A stretch of DNA of 20,000 nucleotides from an uncultured virus (IMG/VR IMGVR_UViG_3300027917_000001) (taxonomy: Duplodnaviria; Heunggongvirae; Uroviricota; Caudoviricetes). The position numbers and the translations under genes are program-made. The DNA lies in IMG/VR virus record IMGVR_UViG_3300027917_000001; one strand, given 5' to 3'. Below, in pieces: positions 4,258 to 17,874 of this stretch. Positions within the stretch are counted from its first letter, which is position 1, and every line of letters starts with the position of its first letter. The notes beneath the pieces are model-generated. The model saw only the letters and a list, made by a program, of their open reading frames with translations, made no database searches and was not told the DNA's origin.

Positions 4258-4847
4258 TGTCAATCGTTGAGAATGACATCAGGCTCATGCGGCGCATGCT
4301 GGTCTTGCGTCAAGTGAACGACGACTTCGGTTTACAGAAGATCGAAAAGCACTTGCGTAATGTACGCAAACTGTCGTTCAACTTGCGATCGCCGGAATCT
4401 CAGAGCACATTCCTGAACCGCCTGCAACCAAACGAACGATGGCTGGCACAGCAGTTCGGCTTTGTTGAGCTGCCAGACTACCACGACACCGTGTTCCTCA
4501 ACTCGCGCTGGGCAAACCCGGCCACGCTCTACGTCAGGCTCGTGGAGCCTGTCTCCGGGTTGCAGGAATACGGAGAGATCATGTACATGCCGCCCGAGAT
4601 CGAACGTGTCTGGCATGAGATCGAACGAGCGACACACACGCTGTACTCGCAACTCTTCGCACCTAGGGTGCATTCTGCGATAGAAGGTGGACGCATGGAA
4701 GTAGAGCTGCCGAAGCAAGTGACTGGCAAGGTGCTGCGAGTAGCGATCAAACGCTACTTCAAATACCTGTGGCACAGGGTACGGAAGTTCTTTGCACGCA
4801 CCATGAGAAGAATGGCGATATGGCGCCGGGATAGGAAAAGAACCTAA
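4257..4847 (+). CDS. Hypothetical protein with highly basic C-terminus
   Basis: 196 aa, TAATG overlaps at both ends; fills the gap between neighbours exactly. Confidence 0.75.
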   Translation: MSIVENDIRLMRRMLVLRQVNDDFGLQKIEKHLRNVRKLSFNLRSPESQSTFLNRLQPNERWLAQQFGFVELPDYHDTVFLNSRWANPATLYVRLVEPVSGLQEYGEIMYMPPEIERVWHEIERATHTLYSQLFAPRVHSAIEGGRMEVELPKQVTGKVLRVAIKRYFKYLWHRVRKFFARTMRRMAIWRRDRKRT

Positions 4848-10472: not shown

Positions 10473-11055
10473 GTCGCCCGCCACGGAGGTCACGATACAG
10501 GAGATCTATGACGGTGCACAGGACTGGCTTGACGAACCCGTGAACATGTCCATAGATCACTTCGTGGAAGCTGCCGGTAAGGATCTTTTGGACGCCGGTC
10601 CACCGGAGAAGCGAGTGGGTGTTACGTTGCGTCTCCTGCACGATTGGCGAATCAAGTTCGAGGACCGAGCCGGCCCGACAGTGGAGATATGCAGGATCTC
10701 TGGTGGCAACCTCGTGACGACCAACAGTTTCGGGAACAACCCGATCTATGCGTCCGACTATGTGTTCGCAACCTATGAAGCGGCCACGTCTCCAACGATC
10801 GTCGGGGTGGGAACACCGACCGAGATCGCGGACGCAGTATTGGGTGAGACAATGACAGAGCTGACTGGTGACCCGGGAGCCACGCCTACGTTCAGGCAGA
10901 TCTTCACTTTGATCTTCATGACGCTGCGGAACAAGAGTACGCAGGATGGTAGTTGGCTCAAGATCTTCAACAATGCCGGGACGGCGATTATCAAGTCTGC
11001 TGTCAGTGACATTGCCGGCGTCTTCACAAGGGACAAGATGCAGGATGGTCCATAA
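10417..11055 (+). CDS. Putative virion structural protein, N-terminus related to that of 7705-10098
   Basis: 212 aa; AGAGG about 9 nt upstream. 'VTIQEIYDGAQDWLDEPVNMSID' resembles 'YTANQLYSWLMNVYDEPVQMDN'. Confidence 0.7.
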   Translation: MATLEFHPGDLSAPFVLVKSPATEVTIQEIYDGAQDWLDEPVNMSIDHFVEAAGKDLLDAGPPEKRVGVTLRLLHDWRIKFEDRAGPTVEICRISGGNLVTTNSFGNNPIYASDYVFATYEAATSPTIVGVGTPTEIADAVLGETMTELTGDPGATPTFRQIFTLIFMTLRNKSTQDGSWLKIFNNAGTAIIKSAVSDIAGVFTRDKMQDGP

Positions 11056-13760: not shown

Positions 13761-13789
13761 TTGACAAAGCATACAACCTTTGCTATATT
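13761..13789 (+). promoter_or_regulatory. sigma70-type promoter P1 with extended -10
   Basis: TTGACA (13761-13766), 17-nt spacer ending TGC, TATATT (13784-13789); fills the intergenic gap. Confidence 0.85.
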
Positions 13790-13800
13790 AGGGACCAGAC

Positions 13801-14019
13801 ATGGCTACGAGAAGAATTGCACGGTTCATGACGCACTACGACGAGAACGACGAGCTAGCGTCGATCGAACCTGTCGGCCTGATTACGACTACTGAAGGAT
13901 ACATAGTCAGGGAGACATACTTCCAGATGAAGGATGATCTGCCCCCGGGCCTGATTGTAGCGCTCGATCAGATCCTTCAGCAAATCGAGAGCCACATTGA
14001 CGACGAGTTCCCACTGTAG
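13801..14019 (+). CDS. Small acidic hypothetical protein (72 aa)
   Basis: ATG 11 nt after the -10 box; fits between the fibre gene and the next gene, whose SD overlaps its stop. Confidence 0.7.
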   Translation: MATRRIARFMTHYDENDELASIEPVGLITTTEGYIVRETYFQMKDDLPPGLIVALDQILQQIESHIDDEFPL

Positions 14020-14444: not shown

Positions 14445-14473
14445 TTGACAAATTGCTCAAGTTGTGTTATATT
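14445..14473 (+). promoter_or_regulatory. sigma70-type promoter P2 with extended -10, upstream of scaffold-capsid genes
   Basis: TTGACA (14445-14450), 17-nt spacer ending TGT, TATATT (14468-14473). Confidence 0.88.
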
Positions 14474-14476
14474 GTA

Positions 14477-14615
14477 GGCTAGTCTGTAAGATGGCTTGCT
14501 GCCAGTCTGGCAGACCACACAACTAGAGCCCGTCCGAAGAGGACCATCAGAGGCGCTCCGCACGAAGCGGGGCGCCTTGCTTTGTTTCAGGCAACCACAG
14601 GAAAGGACCTGCAAA
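14477..14615 (+). promoter_or_regulatory. Structured 5' leader of the scaffold gene (five successive hairpins)
   Basis: Inverted repeats at 14477-14530, 14532-14544, 14551-14577 (11-bp stem followed by TGCTTTGTTT), 14577-14594 and 14598-14611 (SD AAAGGA in the loop). Confidence 0.6.
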
Positions 14616-15668
14616 ATGTCTGGTGAAGGGCAAGTGGCTAGTGGCCGAGTCACAGAAGACGAGCTGTTGGGCGCAGCCGTCGCAGCGGCCACCGACCAAC
14701 ACTTCGACAAACTGTCGGAGGCAGACGCTGAGACTGACGAGACCCCGGAGGTAACCGACACGGACCCCGAGGGCAACGAGGAGGTCGAAGGCGAAGGGGA
14801 GGTCGAGGGCGATGAGGCCGAGGGGACCAAGGACCTTGACGAAGACGACGAGGCAACCGAGGACTCCGATGAGGAAGAGGAAGAGGAAGACGAAGACCTC
14901 ACGCCAAGGCAAGGAGATGGACGCTTTGAGAAGCGATTCTCGAAAGTAGACCCCAACTCACTGCCCGAAGAGCTGAAGCCCATATACCGATCCATGCAGT
15001 CTGACTACACCCAGAAGACGATGGAAGCGGCGAAGTTGAGGGCAGAGGCTCAGGAAGTCCTGAACGCCGTGAAGGAGTTCGAGGATACGCTGAACACGCC
15101 TCAGGGACTAACGGACCTGATCATTCAAGCGTGGCAGTCGGACCCGGATACTTTCACGAAGGCGATCGAGCGGATCGACCAGCTATCGACAGAGCCACGC
15201 GAACGCGAGATTTGGGAGCGCGAGCAACAGCTCAGACAGCAGGAGATCAGACTCAAGCAGCAACAGCGTCAGATCGTCGCCGGTAGCGAGCAGGAAGTCC
15301 TCATGCAAACCATCTCGAAGATCCGACAGATGGAGGAGGACACAGGGCTTCCGTATGACATGATCGAGGAGTATGTGACAGCCAAGCTAGTCACTCTGCG
15401 CGGTGCGAAGGGTGGACTACCTGCAACCTCTGCTGACATCGACCGTGTTCTCGATGAGTTTCGCACGTCGCTAGGGCCTCGTGTCGTGAGACAGAAGCCC
15501 AAGGCGAAAGCGAAAAAGAAAGCAAAGGCCCCAACGGTGTCAGGGCAGAAGAAGACGCCCAGTACACCACCGGCAGGAAAGAAGCCGGAAGAGCTGCCCA
15601 CCAATGCAGACGACATGTTCGAGCATGTGTTCGAGAAAGCAGTCACTGAGGCGGGTATGTTCAAGTAG
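14616..15668 (+). CDS. Capsid scaffolding protein
   Basis: Start reassigned to ATG 14616 (SD AAAGGA 8 nt upstream). Very acidic N-terminus, 'YRSMQSDYTQKTMEAAKLR' scaffold-type motif, coiled coil, K-rich linker and terminal helix; directly upstream of the capsid gene. Confidence 0.82.
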   Translation: MSGEGQVASGRVTEDELLGAAVAAATDQHFDKLSEADAETDETPEVTDTDPEGNEEVEGEGEVEGDEAEGTKDLDEDDEATEDSDEEEEEEDEDLTPRQGDGRFEKRFSKVDPNSLPEELKPIYRSMQSDYTQKTMEAAKLRAEAQEVLNAVKEFEDTLNTPQGLTDLIIQAWQSDPDTFTKAIERIDQLSTEPREREIWEREQQLRQQEIRLKQQQRQIVAGSEQEVLMQTISKIRQMEEDTGLPYDMIEEYVTAKLVTLRGAKGGLPATSADIDRVLDEFRTSLGPRVVRQKPKAKAKKKAKAPTVSGQKKTPSTPPAGKKPEELPTNADDMFEHVFEKAVTEAGMFK

Positions 15669-15708: not shown

Positions 15709-16956
15709 ATGGCAACATCACGTGATGCAACCCTGACGGTCATCGACGGGATCTTGAAGGATACACATCTCCTTCAGCAGATCCAGAATGCCGTCAACAA
15801 GAGCACCGTGTTGCTGAGCCGTCTTGGTGTTTCCCGAAGCATGAGCGGTCGTAAGGGTCTCTTCTCGGTGCAGGTTGGTACCCATCAGGGTGTCGGCGCC
15901 CGAGCTGAGAACGCAACCCTGCCCGTCTCCGGTTTCGGTGAGTACATCCAGCCGGAAGTCACGGTGAAATACCTCTACGGTGTGTTCAACATCACCGGTC
16001 CTACTATCGCCGCAACGCGAGATAACAAAGGCGCCTTCGCGGATGCTCTCAAGCGTGCGATCATGGATACCCGCGAGGGCTTGAAGCTGGACGTTCAGCG
16101 ACAGGTCTGGGGCGACGGTTCCGCGATCATCGGGTTGACGAATGGTACGGGTGCCGGTGGCGCCACTATCCAGATCGACAGCCCGTACGGTTTGGCGCGT
16201 TATGATAACGGGCATCCCGTCAAGTTCATCAAACGGAATGCGATCGTTGACACGCTCGATACCACGAACAGTGATGCCGTGCTGGACGACGACATTACGG
16301 TCACGGCTGTCGCACACGCCGCAACCTATACCTCGATCACACAGGCTGGCACTTGGAGTGGCACGATCGCTGACGGCGACAAGGTTGTCCGTTACGACGT
16401 GACCCCGGGGCTGGAGATCGAGCTGCGCGGATTGTCCGCGATCGTTGATACGACTGGTCACGAGAGTGGTGGTAAGTACCTTGGCATCGTCCGGGCATCC
16501 TACCCAGAGTGGCAGGGCAACGTCGTGGATAACTCTACTGCCGACATCACCGAGGCACGGCTTCGCGCCATGCTCGACTTGGTGGAGACAGAGGGTGACT
16601 CGCGTCCTGACCTGATCATCACCAACTACAACCAGCGTGCCAAGTACGAGGCGCTGTTGACTCCATCGAAGCGGTTTGTCAGCCCGATGCAGCTTGAGGG
16701 TGGCTTCACAGCCCTTGAGTTCGATGGTCTGCCAATCGTTGTCGATAAGGACGCGCCGCCCGAGCACTGGTGGTTCGTTGACACGTCTACAATCCAGTGG
16801 TTCCAGATGTCCGACTTCATGTGGATGGACAAGGATGGTAGTGTGCTCGACCGCGTGCAGGGCAAGGACGCGTATCAGGCCGTCCTGTTCAAGTACGCCG
16901 ATCTCGGTTGTACCGATCCGGCGAACAACGCTGTCCTCTACGGCTGCGGTATCTAA
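15709..16956 (+). CDS. Major capsid protein (HK97 fold) with a central insertion domain
   Basis: 415 aa. 'GVGARAENATLP', 'KYLYGVFNITGPTIAAT', 'LKLDVQRQVWGDGS', 'ELRGLSAIVD', 'PDLIITNYNQRAKY', 'GGFTALEFDGLPIVVDKDAP' are typical of this capsid family; follows the scaffold. Confidence 0.92.
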   Translation: MATSRDATLTVIDGILKDTHLLQQIQNAVNKSTVLLSRLGVSRSMSGRKGLFSVQVGTHQGVGARAENATLPVSGFGEYIQPEVTVKYLYGVFNITGPTIAATRDNKGAFADALKRAIMDTREGLKLDVQRQVWGDGSAIIGLTNGTGAGGATIQIDSPYGLARYDNGHPVKFIKRNAIVDTLDTTNSDAVLDDDITVTAVAHAATYTSITQAGTWSGTIADGDKVVRYDVTPGLEIELRGLSAIVDTTGHESGGKYLGIVRASYPEWQGNVVDNSTADITEARLRAMLDLVETEGDSRPDLIITNYNQRAKYEALLTPSKRFVSPMQLEGGFTALEFDGLPIVVDKDAPPEHWWFVDTSTIQWFQMSDFMWMDKDGSVLDRVQGKDAYQAVLFKYADLGCTDPANNAVLYGCGI

Positions 16957-16967
16957 TCGCGGCTTAG

Positions 16968-17050
16968 GCCCCAACGGAGCGGGGTGACATACTCTGAGAG
17001 TTCGAGCCGGGAGATCGTTAGGCTCCGCTAGAGATTTCCCGGCCAACTCT
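16968..17050 (+). ncRNA. Candidate structured RNA element with loop-loop (kissing) complementarity
   Basis: Hairpin A GCCCC-aaCGGAGC-GGGGT. Hairpin B AGAGTT/AACTCT + GCCGGGAGATC/GATTTCCCGGC + TAG/CTA with loop GCTCCG. The loops are exact reverse complements over 6 nt. Confidence 0.55.
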
Positions 17051-17069
17051 ATAACTCAAGGAGCACATC

Positions 17070-17636
17070 ATGGCTGGAACAGCCCGCACAGGCCGGAAAG
17101 AACACAGAACCGGCTCAGAAGTAGCTGCATTACGCGAAGAGTTCAACAAGGTGATTGCCGATCTGGAATCCATTCGCGTCGGCGCCATTGGCGGCGACGG
17201 TGGCCTACTCTCCGCACCCGGTCTTACGATCGGAACCTCATCGAAGGCAGAAGTCAAGAACGTGGCTGCGGCGATGCAGCTCCGTGGTTCAGGTTCGATT
17301 GCCATTGGAGCGGCAGAGACCGCTTTCACGGCCACGACACATGACATCGCTGACCCAGACACCGATCCTCGTGAAGCCTACTACGTCCTGAGCGTACAAG
17401 CTGACGGATCAACTATCACCATCACCAAGGGTGCGGATGCAGTGGAGGACGCTGCGGTCAAACCAGCGGCACCGGCCGGCGAGGTGATTTTGGGTTGGGT
17501 GAAGATCCAACACGACGGTTCTGCGATCTTTGACGCGACCACCGACGACTTGGACTCAGCGCACCTGACCGTCACATACGAAGATGCGCCGCTGATGGCG
17601 GCTTCTGCACTACTTGCTGGAACGGTCAACGCATAA
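17070..17636 (+). CDS. Putative capsid decoration/cement protein
   Basis: 188 aa, Ala/Thr/Gly-rich; SD AAGGAG; directly after the capsid gene and before a terminator; short N-terminal helix 'EVAALREEFNKVIADLESIR'. Confidence 0.62.
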   Translation: MAGTARTGRKEHRTGSEVAALREEFNKVIADLESIRVGAIGGDGGLLSAPGLTIGTSSKAEVKNVAAAMQLRGSGSIAIGAAETAFTATTHDIADPDTDPREAYYVLSVQADGSTITITKGADAVEDAAVKPAAPAGEVILGWVKIQHDGSAIFDATTDDLDSAHLTVTYEDAPLMAASALLAGTVNA

Positions 17637-17637
17637 C

Positions 17638-17680
17638 GTTGCTTGGGGGCGCGTGTGTTGCGTGCCCCCGCAACAGTTTT
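17638..17680 (+). terminator. Intrinsic terminator closing the scaffold-capsid-decoration unit
   Basis: GTTGC-tt-GGGGGCGCG-tgtgttg-CGTGCCCCC-GCAAC followed by AGTTTT; the U tract is short, so termination is probably leaky. Confidence 0.68.
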
Positions 17681-17691
17681 AGGAGGCGAAG

Positions 17692-17874
17692 ATGCCTCTG
17701 AAAAAGGGCAGTTCTCAAAAGACAATATCCAGCAACATCTCCGAACTGCGCCACGCCGGATATCCACAAGATCAGGCCGTGGCTATTGCTATGGATAAGG
17801 CTGGCAAGTCTCGCAAGAAGAAGAAACGCAAGAAGCGCAGTACACACAAACTGCGGAAGGCGATCTACGGGTGA
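17692..17874 (+). CDS. Small basic protein, MPLKKG...QAVAIA family (DUF6496-like)
   Basis: Perfect AGGAGG SD. '[38 protein letters not shown]' plus a K/R tail; a recurrent small phage protein (from recall). Confidence 0.78.

Follow-up and report, generated by a model that had tools for sequence, protein, structure and literature searches.

The 113-nt gap downstream of the major capsid gene of this uncultured phage contains a long, interrupted stem-loop (hairpin B), which is probably a post-capsid intercistronic element acting as a leaky terminator or as a protector of the 3' end of the message, and thereby raising expression of the capsid over that of the downstream genes. Within the gap, hairpin B is the only feature that stands above chance. 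Judging from predicted folds, a strong hairpin in this place appears to be a positional constant of the capsid family and of its distant relatives among cultured phages. The loop-loop (kissing) contact between two hairpins, for which the gap was originally singled out, looks like a product of chance.

The window (the whole 20,000-nt stretch of DNA analysed here) carries a phage structural module encoded on the + strand, with a P22-type portal gene (24-2258), several large ORFs without a family, the capsid gene, the gap and the 188-aa ORF (Table 1). The capsid ORF is assigned to phrog_14242 (major head protein, E 8.6e-59) and also gives a weak match, under the family cut-off, to SU10_MCP (PF17236). 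It has 277 homologues at E<=0.001, the nearest of which (P0002-P0007) share 61-73% identity with it; in the closest cultured phages the identity of the capsid is just 26-28%, a nucleotide search of GenBank phages with the stretch from the capsid gene to the next gene gave no match, and an exact-stem pattern scan of viral contigs gave 0 matches. The length of 113 nt given in the original prediction is correct, as the gap extends from 16957, the base after the capsid stop codon, to 17069, the base before the next ATG.

Table 1. Features of the post-capsid region and of related gaps (positions in the window unless a locus is named)
Feature	Position	Strand	Remarks
Major capsid gene (415 aa)	15709..16956	+	Stop codon TAA at 16954-16956
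Hairpin A	16968..16985	+	5 pairs (one G-U), loop AACGGAGC; weak, context-dependent
CGGAGC in loop A	16975..16980	+	Complements 17022-17027; duplex energy -9.5 kcal/mol
Hairpin B	16997..17050	+	22 pairs (6+1+11+4, two G-U), apical loop GCUCCG, no U tract
GCUCCG, apical loop of hairpin B	17022..17027	+	Unpaired probability 0.95-1.0
Shine-Dalgarno sequence and ATG of the next gene	17058..17072	+	AAGGAG at 17058-17063, 7 nt after stem B
Capsid-adjacent 188-aa gene	17070..17636	+	131 homologues; must be transcribed through hairpin B
Second intercistronic hairpin	17638..17680	+	Stem 17638-17674, then AGTTTT; between the 188-aa gene and a 60-aa ORF
Gaps in low-GC loci	L118:2338-2470, L121:2337-2470, L124:2362-2464, L126:2334-2443, L137:2204-2336, L142:2294-2416, L143:2353-2476		Flanked by a phrog_1357 capsid gene and a 188-aa gene homologue

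The nearest virus record (G001, 61 kb) has 100% identity to the window in a comparison of 401 bases (16800-17200) and has 88% of the window's sampled words in common with it; being near-identical, it is unusable as a comparison. This record, rated 89% complete, is permuted with respect to the window (window position 1 corresponds to its base 57619 and window position 10859 to its base 1) and lacks the segment 3519-10858 of the window. In a part of it that lies outside the window (L110:6573-6780), a long ORF contains GC-rich, GT/CA-rich short repeats, which give very stable folds on both strands.

Hairpin B starts 41 nt past the capsid stop codon and has the GC-rich stem-loop of an intrinsic terminator. 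Its coordinates and its apical loop are those originally described, while the pairing is more extensive: the fold replaces the count of 6+11+3 pairs with one G-U by that given in Table 1, with two 1-nt bulges and one 1x1 internal loop interrupting the helix. The distance of 7 nt between the end of the stem and the AAGGAG sequence was also given correctly. Folded alone, hairpin B has an energy of -31.5 kcal/mol, and the probabilities of its pairs are 0.79-1.0 across three sequence contexts. The fold of the gap (119 nt) reaches -44.1 kcal/mol (z = -2.65), and 1 of 200 shuffled sequences was equally stable. The 70-nt window that includes hairpin B is the second most stable (-35.1 kcal/mol) of 3987 overlapping windows of the + strand. 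Moreover, the inner stem is the strongest 44-nt hairpin of its own locus in comparison with 31 control segments (rank 0), and ranks seventh on the + strand of the 61-kb record.

Since no U tract follows the stem, as had been noticed from the outset (there are 2 T in the 8 nt after it), hairpin B is not a standard intrinsic terminator, although the same genome has a canonical one elsewhere, i.e. a hairpin followed by TTTTTCTGCTTT. A scan of the window yielded 22 terminator-like sites, hairpin B not being among them, and its termination efficiency may be nil. A search of Rfam gave no match at E<=10 in the region 16700-17300 nor at E<=1 across the whole window. When the gap was compared with the 61-kb record using blastn-short, it matched only itself, other matches being of 14 nt at most. 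Therefore the gap is not a repeated (REP-like) element.

To place hairpin B among its relatives, we collected 106 loci with a capsid hit on the + strand, of which 66 extend from the C-terminus through the stop codon to 100 nt or more beyond it; 55 of these 66 are non-redundant (the own record of the window phage included), and the relatives among them have 24-46% capsid identity. In each locus, 44-nt folds were compared, the best one of the 95 nt that follow the capsid stop being set against the best one of every other 95-nt segment (12-62 controls). The post-capsid segment contains the strongest hairpin of the locus in 26/55 cases and lies in the top tenth in 44/55, the 55 loci amounting to fewer independent lineages because several are near-duplicates. 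No outstanding hairpin follows the capsid gene in the other 11. Among relatives with 40-46% capsid identity, the post-capsid position ranks first in 7 of 7. Strong hairpins are also found after the head genes of Arthrobacter phage Jasmine (15 pairs followed by a U run, z -4.08) and Microbacterium phage Shocker (a GC hairpin, z -3.11).

These post-capsid hairpins have no common sequence across lineages. Many relatives of lower GC content have canonical intrinsic terminators (a GC stem and a T run), while in relatives of high GC content, as in the case of hairpin B, the T run after the GC hairpin is short or missing; in none of the 7 closest relatives compared (40-46%) is the hairpin followed by a run of more than 3 T. 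Most of the relatives have short hairpins of terminator type (8-17 pairs), and one (L008) has, at the same position, an interrupted hairpin even longer than hairpin B. In most of these loci, an outstanding hairpin is thus found within about 100 nt past the capsid stop, in a place that is kept while the sequence turns over. Because the position is kept and the sequence is not, we regard hairpin B as a local member of a positional class rather than as a new motif. On its own it matters little. It adds an uncultured lineage of sediment and soil phages to the many with a stem-loop after the major capsid gene. Within a single capsid family the element holds its position and shifts from a canonical terminator in genomes of low GC content to a U-less GC hairpin in those of high GC content, which raises the question of whether the U-less forms are still terminators or only shield the capsid message at its 3' end.

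A near-identical variant of the locus was detected in public sequencing runs. Run X5 contributes a DNA contig of 17.9 kb and run X9, an RNA library, one of 297 nt; the identity of the variant to the window is approximately 97% over 16400-17076. There are 15 listed substitutions in 16432-16791 and none in 16792-16956, while the gap has just two differences, G>A at 16961 and a one-base deletion at 17050, in the terminal pair of stem B. The variant leaves the two hairpins and their loops intact and so offers no covariation, and it reveals no special constraint on the hairpins, because the adjacent 165 coding nucleotides are equally unchanged. The RNA-library contig covers 16787-17076, i.e. from the 3' end of the capsid gene through hairpin B to the next start codon; this is a weak hint of read-through, if the template was RNA at all, since such a library may also contain DNA. 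Of two further runs, one (X3) contains sequence identical to the window and the other (X4) only an unlike piece of 38 nt.

The variant also has a mosaic junction at 17076/17077, with an identity of about 97% up to 17076 and below 80% from 17077 onwards, although the first codons past this point still look homologous by eye. From this comparison, the capsid gene, the gap and the start codon appear to travel as one block, the next gene being apparently either exchanged or fast-diverging.

The original prediction saw in the gap an undescribed kissing-loop RNA motif, formed by hairpin B and by a smaller hairpin (A) located between it and the capsid gene. Hairpin A was recovered by folding with the loop originally given, and the two 6-nt loop sequences are, on direct reading, exact complements. 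The hairpin itself is marginal. Its energy alone is -7.9 kcal/mol, and its pairs have probabilities of 0.36-0.40, 0.03-0.05 or 0.69-0.83 according to how much flanking sequence is folded with it; it is present in the minimum free energy (MFE) structure and absent from the centroid. The CGGAGC of loop A includes GGAGC, the same letters as in the downstream Shine-Dalgarno region, so that loop B is complementary to loop A and, over 5 nt, also to that region. How readily such complements arise was estimated by folding all 119-nt windows of the 20 kb on both strands with a step of 20 (1990 overlapping windows) and recording Watson-Crick complements of at least 6 nt between two hairpin loops of the MFE structure. 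They occurred in 3 of the 1990 windows, the finding included; the remaining ones, with complements of 8 nt (near 13882) and 6 nt (near 4762), both belong to the - strand and face + strand ORFs. Therefore one such complement is expected by chance per 20 kb of strand, and chance suffices to explain a 6-nt complement noticed by eye in 20 kb of sequence. The sequence TTAGGCYCC does occur twice, as had been pointed out, with 0.14 copies expected and two reached in 5 of 200 shuffles. One copy spans a stem arm of hairpin A and the other a stem arm and the loop of hairpin B, so they are not parallel parts of the two structures, and we treat the repeat as weak evidence. We regard hairpin A, the repeated TTAGGCYCC and the 6-nt complement as incidental products of a G/C-rich sequence containing GGAG.

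Nor is the kissing design shared by the related phages compared. In the post-capsid regions of 54 relatives (24-46% capsid identity) the 6-nt loop-loop complement is absent from all, one having a complement of 5 nt and the others of 4 nt at most. A covariance model of hairpins A and B (built from a single sequence; 83 positions, 27 pairs) had no match at E<=0.01 in 153 related loci (81 + 72; approximately 0.8 Mb), the best one scoring 14.7 bits (E 1.1, no better than chance). Otherwise the model matched itself and, at a chance level (E 0.3), the reverse strand of its own sequence. Well-known kissing-loop RNAs are phi29 pRNA, the HIV-1 DIS and ColE1 RNA I/II, which the gap resembles in having two loops with a 6-nt Watson-Crick complement. 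It differs from them in that the complement is not conserved, hairpin A is unstable and no Rfam family is matched in the gap region or in the window at the thresholds given above, although Rfam includes a pRNA model. With no second copy in the 61-kb record either, the suggestion of a multimerising head RNA resembling phi29 pRNA is not borne out.

Given these results, it is very unlikely that the two loops form a lineage-specific switch, whether by kissing or by mimicry of the Shine-Dalgarno sequence. In the latter version, loop A, a look-alike of that sequence 11 nt past the capsid stop, and the genuine Shine-Dalgarno sequence would compete for the anti-Shine-Dalgarno-like GCUCC of loop B, so that translation of the 188-aa gene would be tuned by ribosomes finishing the capsid gene; in another form of the proposal, the loops of different molecules would pair. 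Features that speak for such a switch are the exact, GC-rich complement between two predicted loops (seen in only 3 of the 1990 windows), the GGAGC letters shared with the Shine-Dalgarno region and the hairpins left intact in the 97% variant. However, it would require a hairpin A whose pairs have probabilities of only 0.03-0.05 in one of the three contexts folded and a complement which no relative shares, in a window where two equal or longer complements lie opposite + strand ORFs and with a covariance model unmatched in the related loci. The geometry is also unfavourable: with an A-form rise of about 2.8 A per pair, hairpin B would be approximately 60 A long, and by this rough estimate linkers of only 11 nt (to hairpin A) and 9 nt (to the Shine-Dalgarno sequence) would hardly reach its apical loop, so an intramolecular contact would be strained. 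Reaching the loop would need the outer 6-pair stem to be opened, at a cost of about 7 kcal/mol. It is extremely unlikely that the gap is a riboregulator in which this competition for loop B lets capsid translation set the output of the 188-aa protein, the loop-loop contact being real but too young to show in distant relatives.

Two other explanations concern hairpin B alone. It could be a relic, i.e. a former terminator that has lost its U tract, or a stable fold kept because it is harmless. This is unlikely, although it would agree with the missing U tract, with the RNA-library contig running straight through the hairpin and with a constraint on the gap of the variant no greater than that on the adjacent 165 coding nucleotides. 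The first rank of the post-capsid hairpin in all 7 of the closest relatives compared, none of them with a run of more than 3 T, argues that the U-less form is maintained, and the same hairpin layout is repeated after the next gene. Processing by a putative RNase III-type enzyme is quite unlikely. In this case the double-strand-specific nuclease of the host would cut the interrupted helix, uncoupling the capsid mRNA from the downstream genes and leaving a protective 3' stem, as processing does at the intergenic RNase III sites of T7. The 22 pairs, broken by only small bulges, amount to about two helical turns and to the near-continuous duplex of about 20 or more pairs expected of an RNase III site; the helix lies between cistrons and has no U tract, and L008 has a longer interrupted hairpin in the same place. 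On the other hand, the hairpins of most relatives (8-17 pairs) are too short for this class of enzymes.

According to the reading that we prefer, an intercistronic stem-loop that terminates leakily or protects the 3' end, hairpin B would form shortly behind the capsid stop codon of a late polycistronic mRNA, and most polymerases would pass it into the downstream genes. Much of the transcription most likely does so, because a U tract is missing and the next gene lacks its own promoter (no promoter-like site was found in a scan of the 113-nt gap). The hairpin would halt a fraction of the polymerases and/or bar 3' exonucleases on transcripts ending or cut there, and the capsid message would outlast or outnumber the downstream message; a second hairpin, after the 188-aa gene, would repeat this step. 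These effects on RNA ends and gene dosage are what we infer from the structure, rank and conserved position of the hairpin. The original proposals of an exonuclease block, a processing site or a dosage device fit with that conserved position.

Comparable elements are known from other systems. The intercistronic hairpins of E. coli malE-malF (REP) and of the Rhodobacter puf operon stabilise mRNA. With these and with the T7 RNase III sites, hairpin B shares the intercistronic position and a stable, U-less stem by which the upstream message could be protected, and by analogy it would most likely work as an mRNA-stabilising hairpin of this kind, resulting in unequal gene dosage. In contrast to REP sequences, it is present in a single copy in the 61-kb record. 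Post-capsid stem-loops are also found in lambda-, N15- and HK97-type phages, where some are annotated as putative rho-independent terminators. Their position is the same, and structure rather than sequence is conserved among them; they are short (7-10 pairs) and often have a UUCG loop, whereas hairpin B has 22 pairs and is interrupted. More closely comparable are the members of the capsid family with lower GC content and phage Jasmine, in which a homologous capsid gene is followed, in the same place, by the strongest hairpin of the locus. They differ in the T/U run after their stems, which hairpin B lacks.

The post-capsid terminator of T7 also carries a U run, unlike hairpin B, and the capsid of the window phage is unrelated to that of T7, with no sequence similarity. 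The form 10B of the T7 capsid protein arises by extension through frameshift or read-through. In T7 and LUZ100, a strong terminator lies immediately downstream of the major capsid gene (PMC10134795); as here, a structural operon read in one direction has a stem-loop right behind its capsid gene, which is considered to set high capsid expression (PMC10134795). These terminators act on a phage RNA polymerase, whereas the promoter-like sites near hairpin B are of the sigma-70 type only. For SU10, its description mentions possible terminators in the spacer after the head gene unit and provides a precedent for capsid extension by frameshift or read-through (PMC4281155). Such an extension was considered for the capsid gene of the window and rejected, as reading on in frame meets TAG after 24 codons and neither of the other frames stays open beyond 10 codons.

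The 188-aa gene had originally been called a decoration gene. Homologues were found in 47 IMG/VR loci, in 30 of which a crude rule identified an upstream ORF of at least 150 aa; of the 29 scanned (one identical sequence was omitted), 20 have a major head protein upstream (18 of phrog_1357 and 2 of phrog_14242), the remaining ORFs being 2 terminases, 1 late activator and 6 without a match. The gene is therefore capsid-adjacent in two capsid families. The protein has no Pfam or PHROG family and no clear counterpart among solved folds. Its model (pLDDT 83) comprises an N-terminal helix and a beta-sandwich and has no match in the PDB at E<=0.001 (Foldseek). The best VIA-align scores (Z 5.7-6.7, against a bar of 8) were obtained with N-terminal "shoulder" parts of phage receptor-binding proteins and tail fibres, and a search of the Atlas gave unnamed viral clusters only. 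A decoration protein is a plausible but putative assignment.

The hairpin located after the 188-aa gene is the most stable 70-nt fold of the + strand of the window (-37.8 kcal/mol) and ranks third on the + strand of the 61-kb record. Its layout is the same as that of hairpin B, i.e. the end of a gene, the hairpin, and the Shine-Dalgarno sequence and ATG of the next ORF. This ORF (60 aa, ATG 17692), whose product is very rich in lysine and arginine, fills an apparent gap of 234 nt (17638-17874).

Two promoter-like sites were noted upstream of the capsid gene. Just before the gene that precedes it, the region 14445-14618 contains a near-consensus sigma-70-type promoter (TTGACA, 17 nt, TATATT, with a TG; 11/12) and a highly structured leader of about 135 nt (z -3.62, 0/200 shuffles). 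The leader includes a canonical terminator (a 12-pair stem at 14550-14578 and a T-rich tail) without a match in Rfam, and the gene probably starts at ATG 14616 rather than at the listed TTG 14496. The arrangement recalls the late antitermination region pR'-tR' of lambda; in a relative (L011), no sigma-70-like promoter or leader terminator like those at 14445-14578 was found. The second site (13761-13801), with the same hexamers and TG (11/12), ends 11 nt before ATG 13801 and would give a 72-aa ORF a nearly leaderless message.

A different arrangement was observed in 7 low-GC IMG/VR loci, in the gap between a phrog_1357 capsid gene and the homologue of the 188-aa gene. In each of them a variable hairpin, which in L118 shows a compensatory G/C swap, is followed by an invariant block (TAGGGTTATAGG, ACCAATGG, AAAAACTAAAT). 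An Rfam search of these 7 loci gave no match, and the invariant block may represent a promoter or a protein site rather than an RNA.
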